Below are positions 2,687 through 29,290 of a stretch of DNA of 48,768 nucleotides, piece after piece. Source of the stretch: Candidatus Woesearchaeota archaeon (GTDB lineage Archaea; Nanobdellota; Nanobdellia; Woesearchaeales; GCA-2685855). The stretch covers positions 1-48,768 of the forward strand of contig NYYS01000052.1 of assembly GCA_002685855.1 (NCBI GenBank). Direction: 5' to 3'. The notes under the pieces are model-generated. The model saw only the letters and a list, made by a program, of their open reading frames with translations. It was not told where the DNA came from and ran no database searches. A program made the translations under genes and the position numbers. Each line of letters opens with the position of its first letter. The first letter of the stretch is position 1.

Positions 2687-2737
2687 AGAGGAAAACTGGG
2701 AGAATACAGTATATAAAGGTTACGGAATGGTGTTCTG

Positions 2738-4843: not shown

Positions 4844-6735
4844 CCTATTACCCTCGCTGATGATCTTTCTTTCATTGTGTACTGATAACTTGTTCGTACG
4901 ATAAAGCTTCGGATCGCTTTTTGTTCCAGGCCGAGCAAGGCATCTTTGTCTTTAAGTATTAATCTGCAATGGCTTGTCTTGAAAGTTCTTCCAACATGAG
5001 GGTTTTCAAGAAGATAGAAATTATAGGCAGGATCCTCTTCGTCTGTTTCTGGATCTTTATGCCCAAAAAAAGTTTCTTTTGCTGGTGAGCAATCTGATAG
5101 TTCAAACTCTTTGGGAACCATGATGATGTTTTTATCTACACGTTCAACTTCCCCATTTGTCCAATCGTTTCCTATGGTGACACCAAAGCTCAGGTTTGAA
5201 TTCTCTTCTACAGGAATGGGATGGTTCATCTTCATCATACCTATTGAGACAGGACCGGGTGAATATGTCATGGTAGGGTCGTCGGTAATCTGAAGTTCCT
5301 GAAGAATATCTTTTTTCTCAGCCATCATTGCACGCCAAGCACCTTTATCAACAAATGTGAGTGGAGAGTAGCCCCAGGTTTCAAAGTTGAATGTTAGTGT
5401 TAAAATAAGTTGGTGTCTTCCTTTTGGAAGTGAGGGAATTTGGCATTCGATCGTATCTGCTACTTCATATTCTATTTCCAGTTCAGTAGGACTTGTTGTT
5501 CCAACGATGCCATCATCTGTTGCACAGCTTGCTTTGAGGTGGATGGGGTCCTCCAGTGTTTTTCCTGTGATGATCGCTAGAGCATAGAGCGGAGTTCCTT
5601 CTATGATCTCCTCTTCTGTAGGCTCGAACTCTTCAACATAGATACCTAACGGTTCGCCTTGGTTTTCTACTGTGCCCTGATAGTATTTTCCTGTGGCATA
5701 GGCTATGCTCTGCTCGTAGCCGAACATGAGCTTTTCATACATCCGCACTATTGAATCCCAGACGATATCCCAAAGTGCTTTCACGTGATCGAGTACTGCC
5801 ACAGGTGCAGATTGGAGTTGGGTAGGAATTACGATATGGCCGAGAAGAAGGATGAAGAAGATCACCCAGAAAATAACTTCGTAATAGAGCCGCCCCCAAT
5901 GAAAAATGCCTGTATCAAAGGAGGATTCACTAAAAAGAAATATACCTAACATAATAGGAAAAAAAGGCCATAGGCCAAAGAAAAAGTCAGGGATCAGATT
6001 ACTGAAAGGTCGGAGCAGGCTTACAACCAGAGGTAGGAAAAGGACGCACAACAATCCAACCCAATAGTAGTAGGAATCGCGCCAAGGTGCAAACGATAAA
6101 CCCTGCACTCTGCAAATTAGGGCGATGGCTATAATATAAAGGATGATAATAAGAAGCATTGAACTGGGAAATCTACTTATGCCTAATACAAAGGTGTCAA
6201 AGAGATGGATACTGAGAAGAAAGATTACAATTCCAATCGCCAATCCTCCTCCCTGTTCTTTGTGTCCTCCAAAAAAAGGGAAATTGCTTCCTCCACCACC
6301 CTTTTTTTTGCTTTCGCCCTTTCCTTTGCTTTCTGATCGTGGAGTGTACCCAAAGGGTGTTCGTGAAGGGGGAGGGGTTCTTCTTCTCCCGGCGCCGGAG
6401 GCGACGCCTGCCATTGTTGCTCCTGCTACTGCACCGGTTGCGGCTGCTGCTGCAACTCCAGGTCCTGAATAGGCAGAAGAGGGTGGTCGGGGTCCTGCAA
6501 TAGGGGTGCGGGATGCTTTGTAATCAGCATATTTGGTTTTGAGTTTGTCTTTAGCAGTTACGCCGAGGTCTTTTGTCTTTGTAATTGCCTTTCCACCTAG
6601 CTCCTTGCTCTTATCAACTGCTTTTGCACCAAGATCCTTTCCCTTATCAACAACATGGGTTTTAGCAGCATTTAATCCTTGTGCTGCTTTCCTTTTCAGG
6701 CTATTCATTAAGGCAGGGGGTATTTTTGGTGGCAT
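4840..6735 (-). CDS. Polytopic membrane protein: disordered basic N-terminus, about 5 TM helices, and a C-terminal extracytoplasmic paralog-4 module
   Basis: 631-aa ORF. N-terminus has 11-residue K-rich repeats (DKGKDLGAKAV/DKSKELGGKAI/TKTKDLGVTAK), an A/G tract and a P/R/G/K-rich linker. About five hydrophobic helices fall at aa ~175-313. The C-terminal ~270 aa carry family motifs (SPGPVSIGM, RTSYQYTMK). GAGGT lies upstream of the ATG. Confidence 0.8.
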   Translation of the reverse strand: MPPKIPPALMNSLKRKAAQGLNAAKTHVVDKGKDLGAKAVDKSKELGGKAITKTKDLGVTAKDKLKTKYADYKASRTPIAGPRPPSSAYSGPGVAAAAATGAVAGATMAGVASGAGRRRTPPPSRTPFGYTPRSESKGKGESKKKGGGGSNFPFFGGHKEQGGGLAIGIVIFLLSIHLFDTFVLGISRFPSSMLLIIILYIIAIALICRVQGLSFAPWRDSYYYWVGLLCVLFLPLVVSLLRPFSNLIPDFFFGLWPFFPIMLGIFLFSESSFDTGIFHWGRLYYEVIFWVIFFILLLGHIVIPTQLQSAPVAVLDHVKALWDIVWDSIVRMYEKLMFGYEQSIAYATGKYYQGTVENQGEPLGIYVEEFEPTEEEIIEGTPLYALAIITGKTLEDPIHLKASCATDDGIVGTTSPTELEIEYEVADTIECQIPSLPKGRHQLILTLTFNFETWGYSPLTFVDKGAWRAMMAEKKDILQELQITDDPTMTYSPGPVSIGMMKMNHPIPVEENSNLSFGVTIGNDWTNGEVERVDKNIIMVPKEFELSDCSPAKETFFGHKDPETDEEDPAYNFYLLENPHVGRTFKTSHCRLILKDKDALLGLEQKAIRSFIVRTSYQYTMKERSSARVIG

Positions 6736-6786
6736 AGCTCGACCTCTTTCTTTTAAAAATCGAGAAGAAGATATAAAAGCTTTTCG

Positions 6787-8472
6787 CTAAGAGTAGTCGA
6801 GCTCTATTTCTATTTCAGAAATAGTGAAATCTGTGTCTGGAATGATTTCAAGGCTGTTACTTCCACTTCTGACAAAGCTATCAATGTTTCTGTTTACTTC
6901 TATGTCGCGGGTGTCAAAGGCGACGTCCATGCCGTTAATAGATAGTGTGAAGCGTTTTCTGATATTGCTTTCTCCGAATCTGATTCGGATATCGACGTCG
7001 TAGGGTATGTCCAGATATTCTTCAAGTTCAGAGTCGGATTCTATATTTGTACAGGGTTTGGGACGGCTTCTGTCTCCATCGCGATATCCATTAGGACAGT
7101 CATCGCATTCTGTGGAAGAGACTGCTTCTTCACAAACTGATCCAAGGCCTGCAGCAGGCACGTCATCACACCAAAAGTTATCTTCGGTATCTTCGTAACA
7201 GCAGTCCTTATCATAAAAGACGCTGCAGCTTGCAGGACAATCGTCGTCTGTATCGTCACCACAGAGATCTTCACAGGGTTCGGGAGGGTTTCCTCGCTTA
7301 TCTTCATAGCCTGCAGCACAACGGTTGCAATCATCTTCTATATCTATAAAGCTGACACAACGGTCGTCTAATCGTTCGGGTTCTACATCGCACCAGAACT
7401 CTTCTTCATCAAAGCAACAGTCTTTGTCTTCATCTGCTTCACAGTCTGCAGGACATTTACCGTCGACATCCCCACACCTGGCACGGATCAAATCTTTTTC
7501 AACAAAATAGGTTCTATCCATGTAAAAGGTGTACAAAGGATTGAACTCGTCTTCCAGATCAACTTTAACCGAGAGTTGGTCGATGAGATAGGAGCCTGCA
7601 TAACTCACAAATTCGAGTTCGTTTTCTCCTTCAACTAAGTCAGTTGGATTTAGTTCTATATGATTCCTGACACCGCAGTCTGCTACTGCTGAAAAGATTC
7701 TTCTTCCGTTAAGACTGATTGAGAGCGGGCCTGCTTCTGATAGGGTACAGTCAGGGAAGAAGAAGAGTGTTGCCTCGTCCATATAGGTTTTCTCTTCATC
7801 GCTTAAAAAGAAGGTTTGCGTGCTTTCTGAACGAGAGATATCTGTAAGGTCTGCTGTGACCTGGATGCTTGTTAAGAGGTATTGATGGATGAGCCAGAAT
7901 GCCCAGCCAGGACTTGAAACTGTAAAGAAGAGTTCGTTCTCTTCTTCTAAGAGCGCACTAGGGAGTTGAATAGGAGCGGGGCTGCCTACAGAGTACTTAT
8001 CTTCCACGATCTGTTCTCCATTCAGATAGACAATAAGTCTTCCTTCTGCATCTTTAATGTTGAAGGAAAGTTGTACATTTTCTGAGAGTCCGGGATCTAG
8101 AGAAAAGGTAAGCGTGTCTGAAGTTTTTTCAAATGCAGAGTTCTTTACAAAGATAGACTCTGCTGATTCCAGGATGCCTGCATTGGTCGATGTAAGAATG
8201 CGAAAGCTTGGAAGGTCATGTTCTCGTTCATTATATTTAAGATGGGTGAGGGCACCGGGTGTTACAAAGAGGAGGGTGTTATTTTGTATGGTGGTTGGCG
8301 GATATCCTCCAGGACCTGGGCTTGGACCTGATCCTGGGCTTGGTGAATCTTCTAATAATCTGTCTCGCTCATCAGGCGGGAGAAAGAGGATGTAGATGAT
8401 GATAAGGGCGGCTATCACTATAACTAGAACTGCACTGCTCCCTGCGCTTTGTGCTCGCTTCTGCATAGTCAT
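6787..8472 (-). CDS. N-terminally anchored surface protein with a class-III (type IV pilin-like) signal candidate, three LNG-type beta modules and a duplicated acidic Cys-rich insert
   Basis: 561-aa ORF. The N-terminus MTMQKRA|QSAGSSAVLVIVIAALIIIYILF resembles archaeal prepilin signals ([KR]-[GA] then Q/S plus a hydrophobic stretch). A P/G/S linker follows. Three modules carry the [LI]NG-x-x-[IV] motif. There are two ~70-aa Cys/Asp/Glu-rich repeats. A TATA-like ACTTTAAATAC lies about 20 nt upstream of the ATG. Confidence 0.75.
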   Translation of the reverse strand: MTMQKRAQSAGSSAVLVIVIAALIIIYILFLPPDERDRLLEDSPSPGSGPSPGPGGYPPTTIQNNTLLFVTPGALTHLKYNEREHDLPSFRILTSTNAGILESAESIFVKNSAFEKTSDTLTFSLDPGLSENVQLSFNIKDAEGRLIVYLNGEQIVEDKYSVGSPAPIQLPSALLEEENELFFTVSSPGWAFWLIHQYLLTSIQVTADLTDISRSESTQTFFLSDEEKTYMDEATLFFFPDCTLSEAGPLSISLNGRRIFSAVADCGVRNHIELNPTDLVEGENELEFVSYAGSYLIDQLSVKVDLEDEFNPLYTFYMDRTYFVEKDLIRARCGDVDGKCPADCEADEDKDCCFDEEEFWCDVEPERLDDRCVSFIDIEDDCNRCAAGYEDKRGNPPEPCEDLCGDDTDDDCPASCSVFYDKDCCYEDTEDNFWCDDVPAAGLGSVCEEAVSSTECDDCPNGYRDGDRSRPKPCTNIESDSELEEYLDIPYDVDIRIRFGESNIRKRFTLSINGMDVAFDTRDIEVNRNIDSFVRSGSNSLEIIPDTDFTISEIEIELDYS

Positions 8473-16632: not shown

Positions 16633-17082
16633 ATGGGGGAGATCGATCAGCTGAAAGAGCAGCTTCGCGATAGTTTTTCTAGGATTAAAAAGGAGATGTC
16701 ACAGAAGGATCTCGAGATAGCTCGTCTGAGAACAGATGTTGAGATGGTGAAACAGAACCTCATCCCTAAGGAGGAGATGAAGGAGCTCATTTTTGAAGCT
16801 ATAACAAGGGCCTTGAACAAGAAAGAGGAGGCTCCTCTGAAGGAAGAGCTCCTTAAACGGTTTGAAAAGAACAAGAAGGAGATCATCAAACAGAAGATTA
16901 TTGAACTTATTGCAGAAAAACAGGATATAAGCATTAGTGAGTTAAAGGAGCAGATGGTCATGCAGAAGTACTGTTCAAAGGCGAGCTTTTACCGTTATCT
17001 TCGAGAGCTGCAGGAGATAGGACGGATCGATTTCATGGAGATCAATAAGAAGAAGATCTGTTTAAAGAAGGCAGAGTTCTAA
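16633..17082 (+). CDS. Coiled-coil protein with a C-terminal winged-HTH-like domain (putative DNA-binding, unknown family)
   Basis: 149 aa. The N-terminal ~95 aa are K/E/L-rich heptad-like sequence. The C-terminus IIELIAEKQDISISELKEQMVMQKYCSKASFYRYLRELQEIGRIDF looks like a wHTH. The gene is immediately downstream of the iteron arrays. Confidence 0.6.
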   Translation: MGEIDQLKEQLRDSFSRIKKEMSQKDLEIARLRTDVEMVKQNLIPKEEMKELIFEAITRALNKKEEAPLKEELLKRFEKNKKEIIKQKIIELIAEKQDISISELKEQMVMQKYCSKASFYRYLRELQEIGRIDFMEINKKKICLKKAEF

Positions 17083-17197
17083 TTTTCTTTGAGGGAGATA
17101 CCCCTCTGTTGATGACTTTATCTCATCTACGTTTGACTGTTTAGAGAAAGATTGTTGGGGTAAAGTTTATAAGAAACCTTGTACCACCATTAAAAAA

Positions 17198-17497
17198 ATG
17201 ATAAAAAATGTTATCGAACTCATAGAATATTCGCAGGATGGAATATTGAGTAAGGAGATTGACAAATCGGGGAAGAGTTCGGTTACCTTATTTTGTATGG
17301 GAAAGGGCACAGAACTATCTGAGCACACTTCGACGAAAGAAGGGGTAGTTTATGTGGTTGAGGGGAAAGGTGTTTTCAATTTGGAAGGAAAGGATCTTAT
17401 TATGTCTCAAGGAGTTCTTATATCTATGAAATGTAATGCACGTCATTCTTTGAAGGTTGAAGAGAATACCTCTTTTCTTTTGATATTAACAAGTTGA
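17198..17497 (+). CDS. Cupin-domain protein
   Basis: 99 aa. GTELSEHTSTKEGVVYVVEGKGVFNLEG...ARHSL fits the cupin_2 two-motif pattern. TATA-like AAGTTTATAAGAAA lies about 25 nt upstream. Confidence 0.7.
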   Translation: MIKNVIELIEYSQDGILSKEIDKSGKSSVTLFCMGKGTELSEHTSTKEGVVYVVEGKGVFNLEGKDLIMSQGVLISMKCNARHSLKVEENTSFLLILTS

Positions 17498-17554
17498 CTT
17501 AAAAAAAGGGTCTGTTCTTTTCATGTGAGATGTTAATACAAAGAGTGTTTGTTT

Positions 17555-18109
17555 TTATTCTGCAGCTTTTTCTGGTTGTTCCTTTTTTTCTGGTGTTGCT
17601 TCTTTTTTGTCCTTCTGTTCTTCTGTTTTTGTTTCTGCTTTGTGTTCTTTCTTTTCTTCTTGTTTTAGTTCTTTCTTTTCTGTGGAAGCCTTTTCGTCTT
17701 CTGTTTTTTTAGCTTCTGTTTTCTTTTCTTTTTGTGGTTCCTTCTCTGTGGGTTTCTTTTCTTTTGTCGATTCTTTTTCTGTTTTCTTTTGTGTTGGTTT
17801 CTTTTCTGGAACAGCTAAGGGTGTTTTTGTTTGTTTTTGTTTTTTTGGTCTTGGAGCGGTTTTTCGTGGTTTTGTTTCTGAGACATCTATCTTGAGTTTT
17901 TTGAACTCTTTTGAAATGTCTGCATGGCTTGCGCCTTTGGTAAGTTTGAGAACTTGATCGAGTGGTTCAAGGTGTTTGATGTTGCACTTTTTTCTTCGGG
18001 TTTGTCCATCTATGAGAACGTATCCGTTGTCTAGGGTGTCTACAATGACGCATTTTTTTGCTGCATCTCTTCCAGCAAGTTTTACACAAAGTCTTCCGAT
18101 TTCAAACAT
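17555..18109 (-). CDS. rpl14e: 50S ribosomal protein L14e (eL14) with a ~100-aa K/E/T-rich C-terminal tail
   Basis: MFEIGRLCVKLAGRDAAKKCVIVDTLDNGYVLIDGQTRRKKCNIKHLEP is the KOW-like eL14 core. Residues ~80-184 are low-complexity K/E/T/P sequence. Confidence 0.9.
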   Translation of the reverse strand: MFEIGRLCVKLAGRDAAKKCVIVDTLDNGYVLIDGQTRRKKCNIKHLEPLDQVLKLTKGASHADISKEFKKLKIDVSETKPRKTAPRPKKQKQTKTPLAVPEKKPTQKKTEKESTKEKKPTEKEPQKEKKTEAKKTEDEKASTEKKELKQEEKKEHKAETKTEEQKDKKEATPEKKEQPEKAAE

Positions 18110-18157
18110 TTTGGTCTCCTCTCAAGAACCTCCTTCGTCGCCGACAGGAATAGAGGT

Positions 18158-18421
18158 CTATCGCATTTCTAATTTTATTTTCTGTCTTGTGCAGGTTGAG
18201 CACAGGACTCCGCCATAGGGCCGTTCGGGCCGTTTCTGGGTTTTGGGAAGGTTTGCCATTCTTATGGGTCGTTCCCGTGGGATGCCAGGAAGGGTTTTTT
18301 TGCAGGTTGCACAGGAGGGTGCTTTAGGGTTTCTCTGGTCATATCTCTGTACTGTTCTTCCTCCAGGGGTCCGTATCTGGACCTTTCTGAGCGTTCCTGA
18401 TTTGTGTCTTCCGCTTGGCAT
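18158..18421 (-). CDS. rpl34e: 50S ribosomal protein L34e (eL34)
   Basis: The segments RHKSGTLRKVQIRTPGGRTV...CATCKKTLPG...YGGVLCSTCTRQKI carry the eL34 zinc-ribbon pattern. TATA CCTTTATAAATCC lies about 25 nt upstream. Confidence 0.92.
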   Translation of the reverse strand: MPSGRHKSGTLRKVQIRTPGGRTVQRYDQRNPKAPSCATCKKTLPGIPRERPIRMANLPKTQKRPERPYGGVLCSTCTRQKIKLEMR

Positions 18422-18495
18422 GGGGGGAGGAACGTTGAAGGATTTATAAAGGTTGCTCTGAATTAATTTCTATATGGAAAATAAAGTGGGTTGTT

Positions 18496-19254
18496 TTAAT
18501 ACACATCCAAAACTTTTCTCAGGATCGAACTAAAGAGTATTGAGAAGAGAATATAGGTGAACAGCCATCCTGGCTGGTAGCCGAAGAGGGTGAACGAGTT
18601 TCCAAGGGGTTTTACCTTTTCGAGTTCTACTTTAAGGGATTTTATGGCTCCGCGGTGTTTTGTGAGTGGGGGAAGGTACTCTTTTTCTGAGCTGATAAGG
18701 ATCTGTTGTTCAACACTTTGGCCTTCGTGGGTTAGTGTGAGGAGGTAGGTGCCTGCATCTCCTCCGAGCTTCCATTTTGCAAGGCCTGCTGAGATATTCT
18801 GAGTGGGGTTGCTTATATAGTTGAGTTCAGGTAATGCAGATAGGGTTGCCTGACCTGTGACGCCTTTGGAAAAGGTTGCTGTTAGTTCAAACTCCTGGTT
18901 GGGAAGAATGGGTTCATAGGCAAGATGGAGATTCATCCAGCTAAAGATGATAAGGATCGGCACTAAAGTCCAGAGCATGCTTCGAAAGGAGTGTTTCATA
19001 TATGCTGTGTTAGCAGACATTGCTTTTTTCTGGACTTTCATCATCTGTGCAGGGTCTGCCTTGTGAGATTTCATCTCTTTCTGATACTTCTTCATATCCT
19101 GTTTCAGGCGTTTCATCTCTGTCTGGTTGGTAGCGTATTTTGTGATGAGAGTGATTATGACTGTTATGAGAAGAGAGAGAATTGCTAAGGCGAGAAGTAT
19201 GGGCCAGTTGAGTAATGGACCAAATATTGGGTCAAGGAGATTTCCAAATGCCAT
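18496..19254 (-). CDS. DUF106 / archaeal YidC-Oxa1-like membrane insertase homolog with an inserted ~110-aa loop domain
   Basis: 252 aa. TM1 is followed by a basic coiled-coil hairpin (TEMKRLKQDMKKYQKEMK...MMKVQKKAM) and TM2, as in DUF106 (Mj0480-like). An extra beta-rich segment (aa ~113-220) then precedes the last TM. The genomic position next to L34e/L14e is the conserved one. Confidence 0.75.
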   Translation of the reverse strand: MAFGNLLDPIFGPLLNWPILLALAILSLLITVIITLITKYATNQTEMKRLKQDMKKYQKEMKSHKADPAQMMKVQKKAMSANTAYMKHSFRSMLWTLVPILIIFSWMNLHLAYEPILPNQEFELTATFSKGVTGQATLSALPELNYISNPTQNISAGLAKWKLGGDAGTYLLTLTHEGQSVEQQILISSEKEYLPPLTKHRGAIKSLKVELEKVKPLGNSFTLFGYQPGWLFTYILFSILFSSILRKVLDVY

Positions 19255-19317
19255 CTGGTAGAGGATGAGAAGGGCTTTTTAAATGTTGTTAATAAAAAAA
19301 AAGAAAAAAATGCTCCC

Positions 19318-20475
19318 TTAGGAGCTATTTGACTGGTTGGACTCGTTCTGGCAGTATCCCTGGTAGCAGCCGAATTCACAAGTAATAGATTCGAGCCAGC
19401 TCAGGTCGTTCAGGCAGTAGAACTCGTTCAGGTCGTTGAGGTTCTGACAGTTGTCTGTGTATTTGTAGTAGGTGCCTCTTAGTTTTCCTTCAACAATTCC
19501 TCGTTCTTCTGGGACGATTCCTCCATCTGTGTCTGTGCAGTAGGTGATGTTGGAAACATCAACGCAGACTCCTTGAACACAGCCATAGTCGTATCCAAAC
19601 TCCTGTTTACAGGATATGGTCTCACTTTCAATAAAGCCGCCTTGACAGTAGTACTCATTCAGGTCGACTCCGTTTCTGGAACACCAATCTGTTTCATTAA
19701 GAAGAGTGAGGTTTGATTCGTTCCTACCCCATGTCTGTCCTAAGACATCGTAGACTCTTCCTCCGTCGGTGTCTACACAGGTGTCGTTACTGATTGTTGC
19801 GCATGCTCCGTTTCTACAAGTTACACCGGGTCCGTATTCCTCTTCACAGTTTACATACTCTACTACAGGTAAGAGTTGTCTATCGCAGAGTTGTTCTACC
19901 ATGATTGGAGATTGACCTTCCCACCAACAACGGTCTTCGTAGTCAAAAGTTCCGTTGTATTCGTTATTACCCCAGACTCTTCCTTGTGTGATGAAGTTTC
20001 TTCCATCTGTATCTGTACAGGTCCTGTTTGATGGCTCTGTGCAGACTCCGTTTCGGCATTCAGAACCTGGTCCTACAACACGATCACAGTCTGCATAGCG
20101 AGTGGTTGCGCTGTTTCCATTATAACAGTACTGTTCCTTGATTGTGTTTGAATCGTGGCAGCTATCTTCAAACCGGTATTCTGGTGTTCCGTTGGTCTTG
20201 TTTTCATAGTTATACCCATAGGTATAGCCGAATGTTTGGTATTCTATTCCTCCGTCGCTGTCTTCACATGTTTTAAATGGTGCTTCAACTCTGTGTGTTC
20301 TGTTCGATGTATTATCTGTTAGTGTTTCCTTGTTGTTGCTGAATATACTAAACTTCTCCATAAACAGTTTATGAAAATATCTTTGTTCCTCTTTCTGCAC
20401 GGTATTTATCGCAGATACAAACAATGATGCTGCAAGCATCATTGCCACACACACTATAACCACTTTCTTTTTCAC
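19318..20475 (-). CDS. Secreted protein made of four tandem six-cysteine CxD[TS]DGG repeats
   Basis: 385 aa with a GTG start and GAGGTGG upstream. A signal peptide is followed by four ~75-80-aa repeats starting CEDSDGG, CTDTDGR, CVDTDGG and CTDTDGG. Each repeat has 6 Cys, and NxT/S sequons sit in the linkers. An oligo-T run follows the stop. Confidence 0.8.
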   Translation of the reverse strand: MKKKVVIVCVAMMLAASLFVSAINTVQKEEQRYFHKLFMEKFSIFSNNKETLTDNTSNRTHRVEAPFKTCEDSDGGIEYQTFGYTYGYNYENKTNGTPEYRFEDSCHDSNTIKEQYCYNGNSATTRYADCDRVVGPGSECRNGVCTEPSNRTCTDTDGRNFITQGRVWGNNEYNGTFDYEDRCWWEGQSPIMVEQLCDRQLLPVVEYVNCEEEYGPGVTCRNGACATISNDTCVDTDGGRVYDVLGQTWGRNESNLTLLNETDWCSRNGVDLNEYYCQGGFIESETISCKQEFGYDYGCVQGVCVDVSNITYCTDTDGGIVPEERGIVEGKLRGTYYKYTDNCQNLNDLNEFYCLNDLSWLESITCEFGCYQGYCQNESNQSNSS

Positions 20476-20540
20476 ATTTCCACCTCGTTGTGTTTCCCCT
20501 TTTATTCTCTTTCCCTCAGGAATTAAAAAAATAAAAAAAG

Positions 20541-21482
20541 TTAAATTTCACAACAGCGTATCTCATACTGTGTTTGTGAGAGGACTTTCATTCCGGTTTG
20601 AAGCCTGTGCTCGCTGCAGATTGCCTCTTCTCCAAGGCCGTAGGGTCCTTCCCAGCCACAGGTACGAAGGTAGTTTCTGTCTGCCTCTATGTCTGAAAAG
20701 ACATCAACAGTGTAGGCATCAAATACGCTTCCTACGATTTTAGTTGTATACACTTCATCTGCTCTGACCTCTGTTATGTTGAGGTAGTCCGCCCAGATTT
20801 CTTCTGTTGTGACCTTATTTGGTTCTAATACTGTTGTTCCTCCTCTTTCTTTGTCAAGGGTTAGTTCGTAGGTTACGTCCATGGATGAGGTGTTCATCTG
20901 ATTTGCAGAGACCCTTCCGTAATCCAGATAGATAGAATCGCCAACATAGACTGCATTTGCATTGACTGCACCTGCTCGTATATATGAATCGAAAATACCT
21001 CTGTTTGCATTTAGCGTCCATCGTACGTCAACGTCTTCTGCTGTGAGTGTACTTGTGTTCATTTTATATGCAAATACATCCCATACATCGAGATCTCCGA
21101 ATATTCTTACAGGTCCATAGTTATCAAGTCGGTTGTGTCCTACGATGTCTCCTTCTGAAACAAAGTTTGCTGTTCTGAGTGTTTGGTCAACATCGAGGTT
21201 TCCTGCAAGATGTGTGTTGTTTTCTACATAGAGTGTGTTATTAATGTAGACGTTTGTCCCGTTGAGCTCATCTGCTGTGAGTTTTGATGTTTGGCTGATG
21301 CCTGCAGAGAAAAAATTAGTATTTAGCCTTTCAGAGGTAATAAGCCCCTCAACATCCATATAATGATCGACTAATAGGTATCCTTTCACTCTTACGTCGT
21401 CGGGAACCTCTGTTAATGCCGATACGAATAGCGCGGCAAAGAGCGTTCCGAATATCAATCCAACAATTATTTTTTTATTCAT
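20541..21482 (-). CDS. Secreted protein, possibly beta-helical, with a Cys-containing C-terminus (hypothetical)
   Basis: 313 aa with a signal peptide (IIVGLIFGTLFAALFVSA). It has N/D/V/T-rich short periodic segments (NVYINNTLYVENNTHLAGNLDVDQTL...) and a C-terminal stretch CGWEGPYGLGEEAICSEH...IRCCEI. GGAGGTG lies upstream of the ATG. Confidence 0.7.
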   Translation of the reverse strand: MNKKIIVGLIFGTLFAALFVSALTEVPDDVRVKGYLLVDHYMDVEGLITSERLNTNFFSAGISQTSKLTADELNGTNVYINNTLYVENNTHLAGNLDVDQTLRTANFVSEGDIVGHNRLDNYGPVRIFGDLDVWDVFAYKMNTSTLTAEDVDVRWTLNANRGIFDSYIRAGAVNANAVYVGDSIYLDYGRVSANQMNTSSMDVTYELTLDKERGGTTVLEPNKVTTEEIWADYLNITEVRADEVYTTKIVGSVFDAYTVDVFSDIEADRNYLRTCGWEGPYGLGEEAICSEHRLQTGMKVLSQTQYEIRCCEI

Positions 21483-21769
21483 TTATACACCTCCACGTGA
21501 AATGAATTTTTTCTACAAAGGGACTCTTTTTTGTTTTATTAATTCTTGTATTTGCTTTTAAATAGTCTCAACAATAGGAAATGAGAGATGTGCTGCAGAC
21601 GCGGGGATAAAAACTCATTTTTTAATGAATTTTTGCTATTGAAGATTCGATGAATATTCAATAATGACAGCAGCACACCTCTCCCTCCCGAAGGGAATAG
21701 TAGACTGTATTGTGCTGGAACAAGATATAGAATTAATGCGGAACAGGCGGAACAGAAAGAGATCTTCAG

Positions 21770-22639
21770 TCAGTCATCGCCGTTCTTAAGAGAGATCAGG
21801 TTTGTATTTCCAAGATTCATGATAGTTATCATCTCTTTCTTTTGAAGGGCTTTAAGATTTCTGGAGAGGGATGATTTTGGAAGAGAAAGTCTCTCCATAA
21901 GGGTGTTTTGGGTCATTTTGCCTCCTTTTTCCCTTAGGAGTTTGATGATCTCGATCTGTCTTTTAGGGAGGCCGTTCAGCACCTCAGGGTTCACAACTTT
22001 CTTTCTGTATGATAGGAGTAGGAAAAGAGAGGTTAGGATGATAACCAGAAGAAGTATTAGTCCTCCCAGGTAAATTCCACGGTTTTCCGGGGCGGCCTCT
22101 TCTGTTAGTTTATTGTTTTTAATGAGTAGGGAGTAGTTTATAAAAAGGTAGTTTGGCTCTTCTGTAAATGTCCATTCGACAGCCAATCTGTCTCCATCAT
22201 AAACAATGGTTCCTTCTGGGTAGATTTCGAATACTTTACTGTATTCAGGCATCTTCATCCGAAAAACGATATTGTTGAAACCGTCAAAAGAGGAATAGTT
22301 AGCTATCCAATACTCTGCCTGTTTAATAGTGAGCTCAGATGTAAAAAATTCAAGCACAAAGAGATAGGCAGGGTTCTTTTCTGCGGGGATGACTGTGAGC
22401 ATGTTGTGTTCTGATGTAAATGAAAGTGAATCGTTATCGTCATAGACTTTAAAGTAGCTTCCCAGGGGAACTGAAATGGTAATATTTGAACGTTCTGTTG
22501 TGTCTATAGATGGAAAATAGGAAATAAATGCATTTCCTGATGAATCAAGTTCTACAACAACTTCAAGAAAGTCCTCGAAAGCGGCAGCTGTTGGTAAGAG
22601 TAGTATAAGACATACGATACATATTATTCCCCGCATCAT
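21770..22639 (-). CDS. Membrane-tethered winged-HTH transcriptional regulator (signal/TM, extracytoplasmic domain, TM, cytoplasmic wHTH)
   Basis: The start is trimmed to MMRGIICIV (AGGTGA lies 9 nt upstream, 7 nt after the upstream stop). An extracytoplasmic domain of about 170 aa is followed by the TM GIYLGGLILLLVIILTSLFLLL, then LPKRQIEIIKLLREKGGKMTQNTLMERLSLPKSSLSRNLKALQKKEMI (ArsR/MarR-like wHTH). Confidence 0.7.
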   Translation of the reverse strand: MMRGIICIVCLILLLPTAAAFEDFLEVVVELDSSGNAFISYFPSIDTTERSNITISVPLGSYFKVYDDNDSLSFTSEHNMLTVIPAEKNPAYLFVLEFFTSELTIKQAEYWIANYSSFDGFNNIVFRMKMPEYSKVFEIYPEGTIVYDGDRLAVEWTFTEEPNYLFINYSLLIKNNKLTEEAAPENRGIYLGGLILLLVIILTSLFLLLSYRKKVVNPEVLNGLPKRQIEIIKLLREKGGKMTQNTLMERLSLPKSSLSRNLKALQKKEMITIMNLGNTNLISLKNGDD

Positions 22640-22646
22640 TGATTGT

Positions 22647-24149
22647 TCACCTTGTGAATATTTTTGTTTGACCTTCGATTTGCACGCCATTTTCAAGAAG
22701 AATCAGCGTTAATTGGTTAGTTCCAAAAAGATTTAAGATAATTTTATTTTCTTTTTTTTCTCCGTTTTTTATAAAATGGGTAGTTCCATCAAGTTTTATC
22801 ATTCCAAATAGTTCTGTCTCACTCACACCGTTGGAGACAGATCGTTCAAGGATGTTGAAAAAATCGTTTTCCTGTTCTATTAAGAGAAGTTGTGAAATTG
22901 AGCGTTTCTTTTTTACTGTTTTTTTTACAAAGTTTTCTTTGAATGGTGTTTGTTCTTTTTTTGGTTCTTTGCTGGGTTCATCTGGTTCGAGCGTCGCTCC
23001 TGCTGTAGGGACAGGGAGTTCTTCCTGAACAGAATCTTTGCAGCCAGCATCTTTACAAACCACACAAGATTCAAGAAGGCGTTCTGTGATCTCTTTATTG
23101 CAAAATGAGTCTTCCTGACCCGAATTTTGACAGGAGTATACTGTTTTTTGTTCATAAAGATCTGTTCCATCACAAAAATTCTCTGTTAAGGAATCAGAAC
23201 AGTCCGCATCTGAGTAACAGCTTATTTCAGCAAGGGTATTATTTGATCCATTATCGGGTTGCGTAGTATTTGTGTTGTTTGAACTGTTTTCAAATATGCA
23301 GACCCCTTCTTGGCAGAAATACCCTTCTCCAAAGAGGCCCCCGCAATTCACATAGATATTTGCAGGTTCGTCATCTGCATCACAATACCATTCCTCAAGA
23401 AGATTTTGATCACCCTGGTTGCACCTGTCTGAGTAATTAAAGTTCTGGTTGTCTTTCTCTCCCCATACCTGCCCCCAAAGTTCATATTCTTTTCCTTGAT
23501 CGGTTTCTTGACAGATCGTGGTGTTTCCCCCAAATGCGTTCCCTTTTTCAACATAGATTTCAAAAGAGATGTTATTGTTTGTTTCATTTTTTTCAGGAAC
23601 TTCATCTCTATAGTCCAAAAGAATATCAAATTCGTGATAGCTTTCCTCTTCTGCAGAGTTTGGTATTTCTAAACTTGTCCGTATTTCAATTGAGCTCCCT
23701 GGTCCTAATCCATATTTATTAAAATCGCCAATCTTTTGGCCAAGAGAGCTTATACGCAACACATAATCATCTGTTTGTTCTGTTCCTGTGTTTTTAATGG
23801 TGATGTTAAGATGGAACGCTGTGTCCTTATCTGTTGATTGTGGATGATCTATTGATTCAATAATGAGGTCGGGGAGTTTTTCTGAACGAACACACTTAGA
23901 AATAACACATTTTGCATCTCCGTCTCTGCAATCTACGTCTATCTGTTTTTTTGATTCGTTTTCACAATAGAATTCACGTAAGATGTTGTTGTCAAGGCAA
24001 TAGTCCCCTCCCCAATAGCGTCCTGTTTTAATGTATCCCGATACACCATAGACCTTTCCCCCATCGGTATCACTACAGTAGGCAGATACTAGAGGAAAGA
24101 GAACTAGGAGAAGAAGAATTAATGATTTTGATTTGGCCCTTTTATTCAT
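22647..24149 (-). CDS. Secreted multidomain protein: CxD[TS]DGG repeat, CARDB-like domain, second repeat, 9-Cys region, basic C-terminal domain
   Basis: 500 aa with a signal peptide. Repeat 1 is aa 25-86 (CSDTDGGKVYG...). A CARDB-like segment follows (LPDLIIESIDHPQ...HLNITIKNTGTEQTDDYVLRI). Repeat 2 is aa 213-284 (CQETDQGKEYELWG...). It has many NxT/S sequons. ACATTTATATAC lies about 50 nt upstream. Confidence 0.8.
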   Translation of the reverse strand: MNKRAKSKSLILLLLVLFPLVSAYCSDTDGGKVYGVSGYIKTGRYWGGDYCLDNNILREFYCENESKKQIDVDCRDGDAKCVISKCVRSEKLPDLIIESIDHPQSTDKDTAFHLNITIKNTGTEQTDDYVLRISSLGQKIGDFNKYGLGPGSSIEIRTSLEIPNSAEEESYHEFDILLDYRDEVPEKNETNNNISFEIYVEKGNAFGGNTTICQETDQGKEYELWGQVWGEKDNQNFNYSDRCNQGDQNLLEEWYCDADDEPANIYVNCGGLFGEGYFCQEGVCIFENSSNNTNTTQPDNGSNNTLAEISCYSDADCSDSLTENFCDGTDLYEQKTVYSCQNSGQEDSFCNKEITERLLESCVVCKDAGCKDSVQEELPVPTAGATLEPDEPSKEPKKEQTPFKENFVKKTVKKKRSISQLLLIEQENDFFNILERSVSNGVSETELFGMIKLDGTTHFIKNGEKKENKIILNLFGTNQLTLILLENGVQIEGQTKIFTR

Positions 24150-24216
24150 TTTACATACGAGCCCTTATCCCCTTGAATGGAAAGTGATTCTTAGTATATA
24201 AATGTAGTGATAAAAA

Positions 24217-24261
24217 GGCGACACACACCAAAAGCTCCTACGCACCCATAAACTTCCGCAT
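24217..24261. repeat. Distal, imperfect copy of the secY 3' end plus downstream flank
   Basis: GGCGACACACACCAAAAGCTCCTACGCACCCATAAACTTCCGCAT. The last 27 nt (CTCCTACGCACCCATAAACTTCCGCAT) are identical to 24344-24370, which is the reverse complement of the secY codons MRKFMGA, the stop and 3 nt of downstream flank. Confidence 0.85.
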
Positions 24262-24290
24262 TCGGGAGCGCCTTTTTCAAAAGCCGCGCC

Positions 24291-24332
24291 AAAAAAGTGC
24301 CACACTCACCCCAAAAAAGGGCTCGGCGACAC
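24291..24332 (-). terminator. Hairpin plus oligo-U element downstream of secY (copy B of a conserved motif)
   Basis: The minus strand reads GTGTCGCCGAGCCCTTTTTTGGGGTGAGTGTGGCAC followed by TTTTTT. The outer stem is GUGUCGC/GUGGCAC. It shares GTGTCGCCGAGC and GGCACTTTTT with the element at 36457-36489. Confidence 0.5.
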
Positions 24333-24370
24333 ACAACATAAAACTCCTACGCACCCATAAACTTCCGCAT
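24325..24370. repeat. Proximal (functional) copy of the duplicated segment at the secY terminus
   Basis: GGCGACACACAACATAAAACTCCTACGCACCCATAAACTTCCGCAT. It lies 108 bp from the distal copy and includes the true secY stop (24347-24349). Confidence 0.85.
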
Positions 24371-25726
24371 CATGGGGTTCATGTCGGCGATGTGCTGGCG
24401 GGCGATGTCTTCATATAATTTGTAGATGATCATGACAGCTAATAGAAGTCCTGTTCCGGATGTTAATGCTCCTGAGATGTCTGCCAGTCCGGCAAGAAAG
24501 CCTATGGCTATACCTCCCATGACGGTGAGCGGGGTTATGTATCTGTTGAGGAGTCTTTCAAGGATTCGCTGGTCTTTTCTAAATCCGGGGATCTGAAGTC
24601 CTGAGGACATCATTTGTTTTGCCTGAGAATGGGCATCCAGGCCGGATGTTTGGACCCAAAAGACAGAGAAGAGAACGCTTCCACCGATCAATACGAGCAT
24701 GTAGAAGAGTGCATGCACGATATCTGAGTTATACCAGGGATGGAGACGAAGGGAGTTTGTGATAAAACCCCTGACAAGGTTTGGGGGTGTGAGCCAGGCA
24801 ACGAGGCCTGTAGCAGGAGAGTTTCCTGCGAATGTGCCCAGCCAGGCTCTTCCACTGTTCTGGAGAAGGCGGGCAAATAACTGAATATTGGCGATTAAGG
24901 CTGCTATCAGGATGACAGGGATGTTGCTTGTATAGAGGAAGTTTAAGGGCCAACGGACACCATGTCCTCTTATTCTTCCAAAACTTAAGGGTATTTCAAC
25001 TTTCATTGACTGAAAGTAGACTACTACTAGGAAAACAAGGATGGTAGATACTATTGCTCCGAAGTTGATTGCTGCACTGATAGGATCTTCGGGAAGGCTC
25101 TGGACGAGGGCAGGGATAGCCCCTGTTGCTATGGCCGGATTGGTAGGTGATGCCAGGGGGCTGAGCGCCCTGATAAAGAGGCTCTGTGAGACACCTGCAG
25201 CGATAAAGAGACTGATACCTGAACCAAATCCCCATTTACTTACTACTTCGTCCATGAAGAGGATGAGGATTCCACCTACAATCAGTTGAAAGACTAGAAT
25301 AGATGCAGGAATTCCTTGTTGAGGAGATAATCCACCCATGTAAACATAGATAACTGCCTCTATAAAGATAAAGAAGAGACTCATGATCTTCTGGGTTCCT
25401 TGAAAACGGCGTTTACCTTCGGGACTTGTGAGATCGAATTTGACAATACCTGATCCGTTCAGGAGCTGGAGGACGATACTTGCTGTTACAATGGGGCCGA
25501 TACCCAGGCTTACAAGGCTTCCAAAGCTTGCTCCGAGGATAATACTGAGAAACTCAAATTGTGCAAGGGCATTTCCGCCGAGGCCATATAAAGGTATTAA
25601 ACCAAGAATATAGAAGAGGACTAAAATTACGAGTGTCCACTTAAGTTTTTCCTTAAAGGCAAGTCGCTTCTGCTTTGGTGCTGCGACTTCAGGAAGATTA
25701 TATATTATTGTATCATAGAGTCCCAT
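24347..25726 (-). CDS. secY: Preprotein translocase subunit SecY
   Basis: 459 aa with about 10 TM helices and typical archaeal SecY sequence (LKWTLVILVLFYILGLIPLYG..., GTQKI...). Its position after L15 is the conserved one. Confidence 0.95.
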   Translation of the reverse strand: MGLYDTIIYNLPEVAAPKQKRLAFKEKLKWTLVILVLFYILGLIPLYGLGGNALAQFEFLSIILGASFGSLVSLGIGPIVTASIVLQLLNGSGIVKFDLTSPEGKRRFQGTQKIMSLFFIFIEAVIYVYMGGLSPQQGIPASILVFQLIVGGILILFMDEVVSKWGFGSGISLFIAAGVSQSLFIRALSPLASPTNPAIATGAIPALVQSLPEDPISAAINFGAIVSTILVFLVVVYFQSMKVEIPLSFGRIRGHGVRWPLNFLYTSNIPVILIAALIANIQLFARLLQNSGRAWLGTFAGNSPATGLVAWLTPPNLVRGFITNSLRLHPWYNSDIVHALFYMLVLIGGSVLFSVFWVQTSGLDAHSQAKQMMSSGLQIPGFRKDQRILERLLNRYITPLTVMGGIAIGFLAGLADISGALTSGTGLLLAVMIIYKLYEDIARQHIADMNPMMRKFMGA

Positions 25727-25739
25727 GGTGGTACCTTAG

Positions 25740-26240
25740 CTAAGAGGTTTCGACAGATTCAGGCGCAGGTTTTGCTTCTTTTGCAGGTTCTGCCTTTTTT
25801 TGGGGAAGCAGAACTTCACCGCCTGCTGCCTTTACCTTTTCAACAGCCTTTTGCGATGCTGAGGAAGCTCTTATTTTAAACTTTTTGGCTGTGTTGCCTG
25901 TTCCAAGAAGTTTTGAGAAGCCAATATCTTTAAGATCGATCACAAGAGCATCTCCTTCCTGCTTTGCAAGCCCTTTTTTTAGGAGATTTCCTGCTTTTTT
26001 GTCGAGCTCAGTAAGGTTGATGGGAATGGAAATTGAACGAGATTTTGAACTAAATCCTTTGGGTTTGACTTTTAGCTTCCAGAAGCAGGGCTTTTTTGCA
26101 TCTCCACGCTTTCCGCTTCCTGCATTTCCTCTTCCGCCCCTGTTTCCTGCCCCTCTATGTTTTTTCATCGCGCCCCATCCGTGGGTTTTACTCCCTCTTT
26201 GGCGAATGTTCTTTTTTGGGGTTCTTCCTTGGGTTGGCAT
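25740..26240 (-). CDS. rpl15: 50S ribosomal protein L15 (uL15)
   Basis: KTHGWGAMKKHRGAGNRGGRGNAGSGKRGD is the uL15 signature. The ATG overlaps the L30 TGA stop (TGATG). Confidence 0.93.
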   Translation of the reverse strand: MPTQGRTPKKNIRQRGSKTHGWGAMKKHRGAGNRGGRGNAGSGKRGDAKKPCFWKLKVKPKGFSSKSRSISIPINLTELDKKAGNLLKKGLAKQEGDALVIDLKDIGFSKLLGTGNTAKKFKIRASSASQKAVEKVKAAGGEVLLPQKKAEPAKEAKPAPESVETS

Positions 26241-26854
26241 CAGAGCATCCTCCTTATAAGTTCATTCATCTTTTCTCCGCGGTATCCAAGAGATCCGCCT
26301 TCCTTGAATGTTTTCTTGATTCCTTTTCCTTTGAATCCTCCTCGGGGGGGATGTAATCGATAAAAGGGTTTTAGAGCGCCTTTGGCATCTTTTTTTCCGC
26401 GTTTTGCCTGAAGGTCTTTCAGGGTGTCAGGTGAAATTTCACCAAAGGTGATATAGTCTTTACATTTAATGAGCATGCCTTTCGTTGAAGGGGTGTTGTC
26501 AATGACTACACAACTATGTTTTTGGCGAAGTTTAAGCATGAAAAGGGTTTCTTTAACAGATCTTGTTACTCCAATGAATCCGCGAAGGAGAATAACTGCC
26601 ACCTTTCCTGTTGGGGTTTCTTTTGAAGGTTGTTTAGTTTCTTCTTTCTTTTGTGGCAGATCTTTTTCGGTTTCTTTTTTTGTGGTCTCTGCCTGTTTTT
26701 TAACTGCTTGTTTTAAGGATTCGAGTTTCTGTTTCTCTGCTTGCTGCTTATCCTTTTCTGCGTCTTTCTTCTCAATCTCCTGGACATTTTTGAGAGCTTC
26801 AGCTACCATTGCGTTCGTTCCTTCAGGTAGATCCTTATTCTGCTGTTGCTGCAT
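26240..26854 (-). CDS. rpl30: 50S ribosomal protein L30 (uL30) with a ~80-aa K/E/Q-rich N-terminal extension
   Basis: The core VAVILLRGFIGVTRSVKETLFMLKLRQKHSCVVIDNTPSTKGMLIKCKDYITFGEI is uL30. Residues 1-82 are low-complexity K/E/Q/T sequence. Confidence 0.9.
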   Translation of the reverse strand: MQQQQNKDLPEGTNAMVAEALKNVQEIEKKDAEKDKQQAEKQKLESLKQAVKKQAETTKKETEKDLPQKKEETKQPSKETPTGKVAVILLRGFIGVTRSVKETLFMLKLRQKHSCVVIDNTPSTKGMLIKCKDYITFGEISPDTLKDLQAKRGKKDAKGALKPFYRLHPPRGGFKGKGIKKTFKEGGSLGYRGEKMNELIRRML

Positions 26855-28117: not shown

Positions 28118-28562
28118 TTTTTGTTAAACCGTGTTCATCTATATATATTTTAATGTGCGCTTTGCTTCTGAAAAATCCGCCTTTTGATTTAAGATAAAGC
28201 ATTCGATAATCGTTTGTGTTGATTATTTTTTTGGTTCTGAGTTCCTTTAGGAATGTTCGTTGGGAGCGGACACGATTCATCCAACGTAGTTTTTCTGATG
28301 CGCGTGCGTTTGCAGATCCTTTTCGTTTTCCAGGCCCTTTTTGAAGACCTTTTGCACGCTGGACTGCTCTTTTTCTTGCTCTGACTCGCGAAACGCCTTT
28401 TTTCTGTTCAACTCTGACAGAACCATCTTTCAAAAGACCTCTCAGATCTGATTTAGTGATTGCCTCTTTTACATCCTCTAATTGTTCAGAGTCAAACTTA
28501 ACTCTTTTCTTAGAGGCTTTTTTTATGGCTCCTGCAAGTCTTTTTTGGAGAGAGAGCTTCAT
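28104..28562 (-). CDS. rpl19e: 50S ribosomal protein L19e (eL19)
   Basis: MKLSLQKRLAGAIKKASKKRVKFD...KKGVSRVRARKR matches eL19. Confidence 0.93.
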   Translation of the reverse strand: MKLSLQKRLAGAIKKASKKRVKFDSEQLEDVKEAITKSDLRGLLKDGSVRVEQKKGVSRVRARKRAVQRAKGLQKGPGKRKGSANARASEKLRWMNRVRSQRTFLKELRTKKIINTNDYRMLYLKSKGGFFRSKAHIKIYIDEHGLTKNGKK

Positions 28563-29290
28563 TGTGCAGACCTCTTTGTTAGGAGTTTGTCATATTCTTT
28601 CTTTTTCTCATCTGCGGAAGGATCTTCTTTCTTTTCTGTTTTTTTCTCGGGTTTTTCTTTCTTAGCAGGTTCTTTTGCCTTTTTAGCGGGTTCCTTTTTT
28701 TCTGTTTTAGGATCTTCTTTTTTAGTAGATTCTTTTTTGGCTTTTTCTTCAGGAGTTACAATTCCTTCCAGGCCCTCTTCCTTCTTCTTTTCTTCTTCTT
28801 TTGCCTTTTCTGCAACTTCCTTTTCTTTTTCTTTTGTCTTTTTCTTCTTTTCAGCTGCAACTTTTTCTTTTTTCTCTTTTCTAAGTTTAAGTTGTATCTT
28901 TACAGATTCTAAAAAGGCGGAACCGTCAATGTTGACCAATATGTAGTTTTCTTTAAGTGCTGTTTCTACGATCAGGATTTTTTTCTTTAATCCTACAGAT
29001 GATCCTATAATAATGCCTTTTTCTTTTGATGTTTGAAGGAGTTCTGCAACCGCATGGACCACGACAGGCTCATAGCCATCATGTGTAAATCCTCTTACAT
29101 CTTTTGGTGATCGCCATCCTTGCTTTGGTCTACGACGATATCCTCTTAGTTGAAGTCTGACTTTTGACTGGAGTCCTTTAGGTCTTCTCCATTCAGGGGA
29201 AAGCTTCTTTTTCTTGTGAGCGTCCTGTTTAATGAATGCAGGTTTTTTCTTTTTTTGCGCATTCCTGAGTTCTACTTTTTCTTTTGTCAT
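28559..29290 (-). CDS. rpl32e: 50S ribosomal protein L32e (eL32) with a ~110-aa K/E-rich C-terminal extension
   Basis: The core KKLSPEWRRPKGLQSKVRLQLRGYRRRPKQGWRSPKDVRG is eL32. Residues ~135-243 are K/E/P/A low-complexity sequence. Confidence 0.9.
   Translation of the reverse strand: MTKEKVELRNAQKKKKPAFIKQDAHKKKKLSPEWRRPKGLQSKVRLQLRGYRRRPKQGWRSPKDVRGFTHDGYEPVVVHAVAELLQTSKEKGIIIGSSVGLKKKILIVETALKENYILVNIDGSAFLESVKIQLKLRKEKKEKVAAEKKKKTKEKEKEVAEKAKEEEKKKEEGLEGIVTPEEKAKKESTKKEDPKTEKKEPAKKAKEPAKKEKPEKKTEKKEDPSADEKKKEYDKLLTKRSAQ

Follow-up and report, generated by a model that had tools for sequence, protein, structure and literature searches.

Flexible genomic islets encode cell-surface proteins between the core genes of marine and symbiotic prokaryotes, and DPANN archaea carry large repertoires of orphan surface proteins. 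In the canonical tail of the archaeal ribosomal supercluster, secY is followed by adk and DUF106, and L34e by cmk and L14e, DUF106 being a YidC-like protein. Translocase and insertase genes can be controlled by leader peptides or upstream open reading frames (ORFs), as in SecM-secA, MifM-yidC2 and VemP-secDF2, and overlapping stop and start codons are a known arrangement for translational coupling. The present analysis concerns a 48,768-nt contig of a Candidatus Woesearchaeota archaeon (NYYS01000052.1, assembly GCA_002685855.1), here called the window, in which secY and the DUF106 gene are separated by four genes (isl1 to isl4) and in which the 3' end of secY is repeated. The four genes probably constitute a 5.1-kb accessory islet, private to one lineage and inserted at the secY/DUF106 junction in one marine population of Woesearchaeota-like (DPANN) archaea. 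The repeated secY end would be an independent element, either older than the cargo or unrelated to it.

Gene order around the islet and the origin of its DNA

Four minus-strand ORFs at 19318-24149, which separate secY from DUF106 by 5.1 kb, had been noted in an original prediction made from the letters of the window, and were described there as three signal-peptide proteins and a membrane-tethered winged helix-turn-helix (wHTH) regulator. This description holds (Table 1): a hydropathy scan shows a single hydrophobic, signal-like segment at the N-terminus of each of isl1, isl2 and isl4, and isl3 has a transmembrane segment and a wHTH domain. Gene order was compared around SecY relatives at 160 loci (80 from GTDB species genomes and 80 from metagenomes), in which the window proteins were located by tblastn. 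The closest of these SecY relatives are 60-71 % identical to that of the window and belong to metagenome-assembled genomes labelled mostly as Woesearchaeota, Nanoarchaeota or Nanoarchaeia, and on these sequences the host is a marine DPANN archaeon of the Woesearchaeales type. SecY scans of genomes and metagenomes gave no relative above 71 % identity, and exact-protein look-ups returned the same population only.

The secY-DUF106 gap is at most 300 nt at 129 of 144 loci (median 28.5 nt) and reaches 3434 nt at the largest of the others, and the 5092 nt of the window is the maximum among the loci compared. There was no tblastn match to any of isl1 to isl4 at any of the 160 related loci, and the islet is therefore derived and private to the lineage of the window. 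The synteny comparison that had been proposed thus identifies it as a lineage-specific accessory insertion in a tightly conserved array. It is extremely unlikely that the four genes already stood here in the ancestor and have since disappeared from the relatives sampled, or that unrelated DNA was joined here by an assembly artefact. The nearest sampled relative has 71 % SecY identity, so that sister lineages are unsampled, but absence from 160 loci across the whole secY tree would demand very many independent losses, and the tight 2-30 nt spacing of secY and DUF106 in most lineages looks ancestral. An assembly chimera is excluded by the identity (100 %) of the junction between the islet and DUF106 across four independent assemblies (two from ENA, one from JGI and one from NCBI), and the arrangement is therefore real; the window itself matches, at 100 % identity, a scaffold of the Tara Oceans survey (ENA ERZ2773079, TARA_SAMEA2620097 scaffold_533) that is present in three samples.

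The absence of adk and cmk from the array had been presented together with the insertion, against the canonical gene order as expectation. No adk or cmk domain occurs in any scanned ORF of the window, but this is not specific to the locus. The secY-DUF106 gaps at the 129 loci are too short for such a gene, as are the L34e-L14e gaps, which are at most 400 nt in 72 of 72 relatives (median 73 nt; 48 nt in the window, with no cmk between), and every longer secY-DUF106 gap in the relatives lacks adk and holds other genes. The missing adk and cmk are consequently a trait of the clade and not a consequence of the insertion, the canonical order does not apply to this lineage, and its ancestral state is secY followed directly by DUF106, L34e and L14e, without adk or cmk.

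Unrelated inserts occupy the secY/DUF106 junction in 15 of 144 relatives, with cargo that includes membrane proteins, a PIN/AbrB pair, a cytidine deaminase and, at locus L144 (6176-9602), a single 992-aa Cys-rich, C-terminally anchored surface protein located downstream of a secY-tail repeat element of the kind described below. The DUF106/L34e junction is interrupted more often (21 of 78 loci). At four loci a conserved gene of about 165 aa lies on the minus strand between DUF106 and L34e (L042 12328-12861, L052 8328-8831, L065 13238-13729 and L079 12160-12645), its N-terminus KRGVSPLIATVLL resembling a class III (type IV pilin-like) signal peptide, and this gene is another recurrent insertion within the secY-L14e array.

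The islet had been described as acquired or expanded surface-protein DNA, with a check of composition proposed. Synonymous codon usage and GC content at third codon positions (GC3) are within the host range, and tetranucleotides are only mildly deviant. The leave-one-out synonymous log-likelihood per codon is -0.98 to -1.09 for the islet genes against -1.09 ± 0.13 for other genes, GC3 is 0.31-0.45 against 0.39 ± 0.08 for the other genes of the contig, and GC is 0.400 against 0.420. No integrase or transposase was present among the Pfam, PHROG and PADLOC matches of the islet or of the rest of the window, and no tRNA gene was found in the window. A viral, phage or defence origin was considered and rejected, as no viral-contig relative of the islet was found and PHROG and PADLOC gave no phage or defence match beyond generic wHTH matches. 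Direct repeats bracketing the islet were not found, the sole repeat pair bracketing 63 nt at one edge. Measured against the classical features of genomic islands, the islet is absent from related loci, and it lacks a deviating composition, attachment-site (att) repeats and a mobility or tRNA gene.

A paralogous six-cysteine module is common to isl1 and isl4 (30-37 % identity), which points to duplication within the islet. Homologues of the islet proteins are few (two for isl2, one for isl3 and four for isl1), all distant and in unrelated contexts, and this near-orphan status and scatter show that the islet genes do not form a conserved mobile cassette. Of the earlier description, accessory insertion and expansion are thus upheld, the latter by the module paralogy, and a foreign or mobile origin is not. 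A second cluster of orphan ORFs was observed at 393-8472 (minus strand), where five consecutive large ORFs (336, 419, 701, 631 and 561 aa) are without a match in Pfam or NCBIfam. Lipobox-like N-termini (…SAC, …SGC and …TAC) together with 9-27 cysteines occur in three of them; of the other two, one contains five transmembrane segments and the other combines 22 cysteines with a single N-terminal anchor. The presence of this second cluster of Cys-rich, surface-type ORFs indicates that such genes are normal for this genome. We infer that the islet is native-type accessory DNA and not a recent foreign element. It would have arisen when fast-evolving genes for surface proteins were relocated or duplicated within the host genome, or would have been passed on by a very closely related organism, and would have landed at a junction that tolerates insertions, as the inserts in 15 of 144 relatives suggest.

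Table 1 Features of the window around the islet and the repeated secY end
Feature	Position	Strand	Basis and remarks
L14e-like protein with KOW motif	17555-18109	minus	Pfam
L34e	18158-18421	minus	Pfam
DUF106 / EMC3_TMCO1-like (YidC/Oxa1-superfamily) membrane protein	18496-19254	minus	Pfam 59.5 bits; synteny
TATA-like box ACATTTAAAAAG	19275-19286	minus	29 nt upstream of DUF106 start; consensus match only
Terminator-like element after isl1	19294-19325	minus	Hairpin GCTCC-TAAG-GGAGC 19312-19325, then T7CT9 19294-19310
isl1, 385 aa, secreted-type	19318-20475	minus	Four tandem six-cysteine modules, about 62-76 aa each; 14 N-x-S/T sequons
isl2, 313 aa, secreted-type near-orphan	20541-21482	minus	C-terminal motif C-x-W-x-G-P-Y...E-I-R-C-C-x-I
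Long imperfect hairpin in isl3-isl2 spacer	21577-21690	minus	Arms GGGAGGGAGAGGTGTGCTGC and GCAGCACATCTCTCATTTCC; RNA fold z = -3.2
isl3, 289 aa, bitopic membrane protein	21770-22639	minus	Alternative starts 22690 or 22696
isl4, 500 aa, secreted-type	22647-24149	minus	Two six-cysteine modules (25-86, 213-284) and CARDB (93-194)
TATA-like box ACATTTATATAC	24194-24205	minus	53 nt upstream of isl4 ATG; consensus match only
Repeat copy 2	24217-24261	minus	Second secY 3' end; mini-ORF 24238-24261 (MRKFMGA and stop) equal to the SecY C-terminal peptide
63-nt spacer 'X'	24262-24324	minus	Two hairpins (about 24297-24332 and 24268-24287), two T6 runs; fold computed
Repeat copy 1, 46 nt	24325-24370	minus	Last 7 secY codons, stop and 22 nt beyond
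secY	24347-25726	minus	Pfam SecY PF00344, 221 bits; last ribosomal-protein-operon gene upstream of the islet

The repeated secY 3' end

A duplicated secY 3' end had been placed at the secY-proximal boundary of the islet in the original prediction. The duplication is present, with two copies 109 nt apart that share an identical 27-nt core; there are exactly two in the window, and none of 100 shuffles reproduced the repeat (0/100). It does not mark an islet boundary, however, as the same element occurs in 12 relatives that lack the islet (L009, L013, L018, L029, L054, L065, L088, L090, L091, L128, L144 and L145). These were obtained by searching each locus for a second copy of its own secY end, which 13 of 150 loci, including the window, were found to carry. 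Copy 2 begins 62-130 nt after the secY stop across the element-bearing loci, the spacer always contains two hairpins, and the architecture of the window spacer is homologous to that of the spacers in the 12 relatives. Element-bearing loci fall at at least five separate places on the SecY tree, amid loci with gaps of 2-10 nt. The element is followed by DUF106 at 10 of the 13 loci and by cargo of at least 1.9 kb at three (the window, L128 and L144). A scan of 2.1 Mb for short-range direct repeats of at least 20 nt found no other gene junction of this kind, the remaining matches being mainly repetitive coding sequence such as Lys/Glu-rich tails. Among these were tandem Lys/Glu repeats in the relatives' counterparts of the L14e-like protein, L32e and L30; in the window, the L14e-like protein and L32e have long Lys/Glu-rich C-terminal extensions and L30 has a Lys/Glu-rich N-terminal extension (L32e and L30 among the minus-strand loci 28559-29290 and 26240-26854).

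Elements that integrate into tRNA genes or the 3' ends of genes regenerate their target, and the islet could be read as cargo of a site-specific integration into the secY 3' end, the duplicated end being an attL/attR-type footprint. The perfect 27-nt core within less well conserved flanks of a 46-nt direct repeat at the secY-proximal edge is what an att core would predict, and a similar repeat stands ahead of large cargo in L144 and L128. The two copies bracket 63 nt rather than the islet, however, with no third secY-tail copy at the DUF106 side or in the internal spacers (local scores 12-17 against a null of 16.1 ± 2.6). Ten relatives have the repeat and spacer and no cargo at all, the window carries no integrase or other mobility gene, and the codon usage of the islet is native. 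Integration of this kind is very unlikely and, for the islet as a whole, largely refuted.

The second hairpin of the spacer has the core CTTTT-loop-AAAAG and is conserved as a structure. Compensatory changes occur at 5 of 10 pairs, 91 % of the cells of the alignment are paired, no G-U pairs are present, and the covariation score of 0.41 compares with 0.12 for shuffled controls, none of which (0/500) reached the observed value; the arms were aligned by hand. Its motif occurs nine times within 300 nt after secY and at six sites in the rest of the 2.1 Mb. Rfam gave no credible family in 17000-26000 or in the spacer of two relatives, with only sub-threshold C/D-box-like matches to ATGATGA codons. 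The possibility that the spacer is a diverged duplicate of upstream secY coding sequence was rejected, as no similarity above shuffled controls was found outside the repeat.

Within the repeat, copy 2 differs from copy 1 across the loci by 18 synonymous, no non-synonymous and 4 stop-to-stop changes. In L128, for example, four of the seven sense codons differ between the copies and both encode MRKFMGK followed by a stop; the exception is L029, where the tails differ after MGG. For a neutral copy 2, about 60 % or more of the differences would be expected to change an amino acid, and a pattern such as the one observed would then have a probability of about 10^-7. The restriction of the differences to synonymous and stop-to-stop changes argues for a mini-ORF that is translated and imitates the C-terminus of SecY. 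In 8 of 12 clear cases (L128 not included), an ORF of 34-59 codons begins with an ATG at -4 to +11 relative to the secY stop and runs through the spacer into copy 2; the part encoded by the spacer changes fast and is not SecY-like. The window, L054, L144, L145 and L128 have the mini-ORF only (7-11 codons). In the window, the frame across 24262-24346 reads ATG(+8)...MLCVAEPFFGVSVALFWRGF, TGA, KRRSRMRKFMGA and stop, so that a 20-codon ORF and the mini-ORF are kept apart by a single in-frame TGA, situated in the loop of hairpin 2; one in-frame TGA is present in L054 as well. The split frames could be decayed small ORFs or read-through sites.

The two-hairpin spacer and the secY-tail repeat might alternatively form a recombination or cassette-capture site, loosely like attC/attI of integrons, with the islet as the captured array. 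This is very unlikely. The element is specific to the secY junction in the 2.1-Mb direct-repeat scan and in the distribution of the hairpin-2 motif, its Watson-Crick palindromic hairpins with compensatory changes and without G-U pairs are compatible with a structure formed at the DNA level, and it is found at three of eight junctions with cargo of at least 1.8 kb against 10 of 142 others (Fisher p = 0.022). The association with cargo rests on three loci, however, and five of the eight large inserts have no element. No recombinase was seen in the window, and the coding-type conservation of copy 2 favours a translational over a recombinational role. The hairpin element occurs only once, the other spacers of the islet being without such a hairpin, and an array with no hairpin element repeated between its genes was not built from cassettes.

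The element may be an upstream ORF with a relay or regulatory role for the YidC-like gene, a source of a peptide that mimics the SecY tail, or a recombination hotspot. A tentative and still rather doubtful proposal is that it is an undescribed conserved element of Woesearchaeales at the secY/DUF106 junction, composed of a two-hairpin spacer of about 60-130 nt and a translated second copy of the last 7-12 secY codons (as a mini-ORF or as the tail of a 34-59-codon ORF) that is identical in amino acids to the SecY C-terminus. In this proposal it may act on the YidC-like insertase gene as an upstream ORF, by relay or regulation, or may yield a SecY-tail mimic, and junctions with the element would be preferred landing sites for accessory genes of surface proteins such as those of the islet. 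We know of no such secY-tail element described in archaea.

Transcription signals and products of the islet

The TATA box near 24200 and the oligo-T terminator after the last islet gene, both named in the original prediction, were located (Table 1), the latter with a preceding hairpin that overlaps the isl1 stop codon. The predicted 5' untranslated region of isl4 contains a purine-rich GGGGATAAGGG stretch, and isl3 either overlaps isl4 or adjoins it. The isl3-isl2 spacer has a TTTAAAA box 80 nt ahead of isl2, and isl1 starts with GTG and has a GAGGTGG Shine-Dalgarno-like sequence. The TATA box ahead of isl4, the second promoter-like box ahead of isl2 and the hairpin with oligo-T that follows isl1 would make the islet transcriptionally self-contained. 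The DUF106 start overlaps the secY stop or is 0-30 nt away from it in most relatives, which suggests coupling of secY and DUF106 there. In the window, DUF106, L34e and L14e must be expressed on their own, and they would now be driven by their own TATA-like box instead of coupling to secY; L34e, like DUF106, has a TATA-like box 29 nt upstream of its start. A scan with a bacterial-type promoter and terminator model, which is unsuited to archaea, gave no enrichment.

The six-cysteine module of isl1 and isl4 follows the pattern C-x-D-[ST]-D-G-G ... D-x-C ... E-Y-Y-C ... C ... C-x2-G-x-C, with six invariant cysteines, and spans 19351-20268 and 23298-24077 (minus strand) in the window. It occurs also in the homologous proteins P0003-P0006, where tandem arrays of the module are fused to Kazal or DUF1554 domains in unrelated contexts. 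No Pfam or NCBIfam family covers the module, and Inhibitor_I68 was rejected as its identity (Pfam 18.4 bits, cut-off 25). An AlphaFold2 model of one module, built from a 23-sequence alignment, is all-beta with a predicted local distance difference test (pLDDT) score of 97.8, and comparison with the PDB gave neither a fold match (best E = 2, template-modelling score <0.4) nor a profile match. It may represent a small, disulfide-rich domain, so far undescribed, that belongs to surface proteins of the DPANN-like type. Both isl1 and isl4 are acidic. The isl4 protein has its hydrophobic segment at residues 10-28, a CARDB domain scoring 50.9 bits in Pfam (cut-off 22.7), a third Cys-rich stretch and 11 N-x-S/T sequons.

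The isl2 protein has only two relatives among 1.84 billion representative proteins, with a signal peptide and a C-terminal motif in common. The family thus has three members, isl2, P0009 (L163 665-1474) and P0010, which share the motif C-x-W-x-G-P-Y-x-F/L-x-E-x-A-x-C ... E-I-R-C-C-x-I and have between signal peptide and motif a central region that varies in length and appears rich in beta structure. In L163, P0009 adjoins a HIT-family-like ORF and a tRNA-like stretch (both identified by eye), a context unlike that of the islet. The AlphaFold2 model of isl2 was unusable (pLDDT 41), and sequence searches of the PDB with isl2, isl3 and isl4 returned nothing.

In isl3, the hydropathy scan and Pfam place an extracytoplasmic domain of about 170 aa between an N-terminal signal or anchor and a transmembrane segment (191-209), which is followed by a cytoplasmic wHTH domain at the C-terminus. 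The wHTH domain (residues 242-303) matches DUF7343 with 45.7 bits (cut-off 27.6), MarR_2 with 28.9 bits (27) and HTH_24 with 27.2 bits (21.9); no mention of DUF7343 by name was found in the literature searched. Its single full-length homologue, P0008, is distant (26 % identity) and likewise encoded amid genes for secreted proteins. The isl3-isl2 spacer (21483-21769, 287 nt) contains, within 130 nt, three of the 11 CAGCACA sites of the window. It also contains the long imperfect hairpin of Table 1, which has about 20 bp with three G-U pairs on the sense strand, encloses two smaller hairpins and has no Rfam match; this structure might be a terminator, a small RNA or an operator bound by the neighbouring wHTH protein. 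As a membrane-tethered wHTH protein, isl3 would sense something outside the cell and control neighbouring genes, and the CAGCACA sites and the inverted repeat are suggestive of a candidate DNA target for such control.

From these features we infer that the islet encodes surface or adhesion proteins, secreted, rich in disulfides and probably glycosylated, with isl3 as their cognate one-component regulator in the membrane; for the surface proteins a role in host contact of an episymbiotic lineage is plausible. Several points weigh against the interpretation of the islet as a self-contained, native-type insertion with such a function. The tetranucleotide L1 distance of the islet is 0.222 against 0.180 ± 0.027, an excess of about 1.6 s.d. 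over the mean that only 8 % of windows of the same size reach; an unusual amino-acid content may explain this, though transfer stays compatible with it. The promoter and terminator assignments are consensus matches, and the function assigned to the islet is read from domains and topology, with no characterised homologue. An empty site in a near-identical strain was not seen, and the SecY relatives available for dating the insertion and tracing its mode reach no more than 71 % identity. Lastly, the enrichment of the secY-tail element at junctions with large cargo leaves a mechanistic link to cargo insertion conceivable. With these points taken into account, a lineage-private accessory insertion is still the probable origin of the arrangement.

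Comparison with described systems

The window shares secY, DUF106, L34e and L14e, in the same order and on the same strand, with the canonical supercluster tail, and differs in that adk and cmk are carried there and are in the array of none of the Woesearchaeota-like loci examined. Like flexible genomic islets, the islet is lineage-specific between syntenic core genes, host-like in composition, and made up of genes for secreted, repetitive, fast-evolving proteins without database relatives. Unlike them it measures only 5 kb, lies within the ribosomal supercluster rather than beside a tRNA gene and has no mobility genes, and no population-level presence/absence variant of it was found. It differs from integrons in having neither an integrase nor a recombination hairpin at each cassette boundary. 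The most conserved gene array of archaea has permissive seams, and a host-dependent DPANN archaeon appears to have placed private surface proteins and a regulator in one of them. It is tempting to see the lack of adk and cmk and the repetition of the secY end as consequences of the insertion, but this is an over-reading.

Among the individual proteins, isl4 resembles the CARDB adhesin-like proteins of archaea and bacteria in having a CARDB domain above the curated cut-off within a secreted multi-domain protein, and differs from them in that this domain is flanked by a six-cysteine module without a family or PDB fold match. Like the membrane-tethered one-component regulators ToxR and CadC, isl3 unites an extracytoplasmic domain, a single transmembrane helix and a wHTH domain in one polypeptide, and is encoded beside plausible targets; the wHTH domain is N-terminal in ToxR and CadC and C-terminal in isl3. 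Its Pfam match above the curated cut-off is shared with the archaeal DUF7343/MarR-like wHTH proteins. From both of these groups isl3 is set apart by an external domain without a recognised family and by having one distant full-length homologue only.

The secY-tail element is comparable to the SecM, MifM and VemP systems in combining a small ORF and a conserved hairpin upstream of a YidC/Oxa1-family gene, here downstream of secY. Its ORF resembles those of the SecM/MifM type in its coding-type conservation, and in several loci its stop codon abuts or overlaps the DUF106 start. The peptide of the element is only 7-11 aa long (34-59 aa in 8 loci) and copies the SecY C-terminus, and at three loci the element is followed by cargo rather than by DUF106 (isl4 in the window, other cargo in L128 and L144). 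Its recurrence, its covarying hairpin and the purely synonymous changes of copy 2 make the element a candidate for a new cis-regulatory or micro-protein link between SecY and the archaeal YidC-like insertase, and it may matter more than the islet. The islet is a further case of the known accessory surface-protein islets; the secY-tail element beside it is the more unusual of the two.

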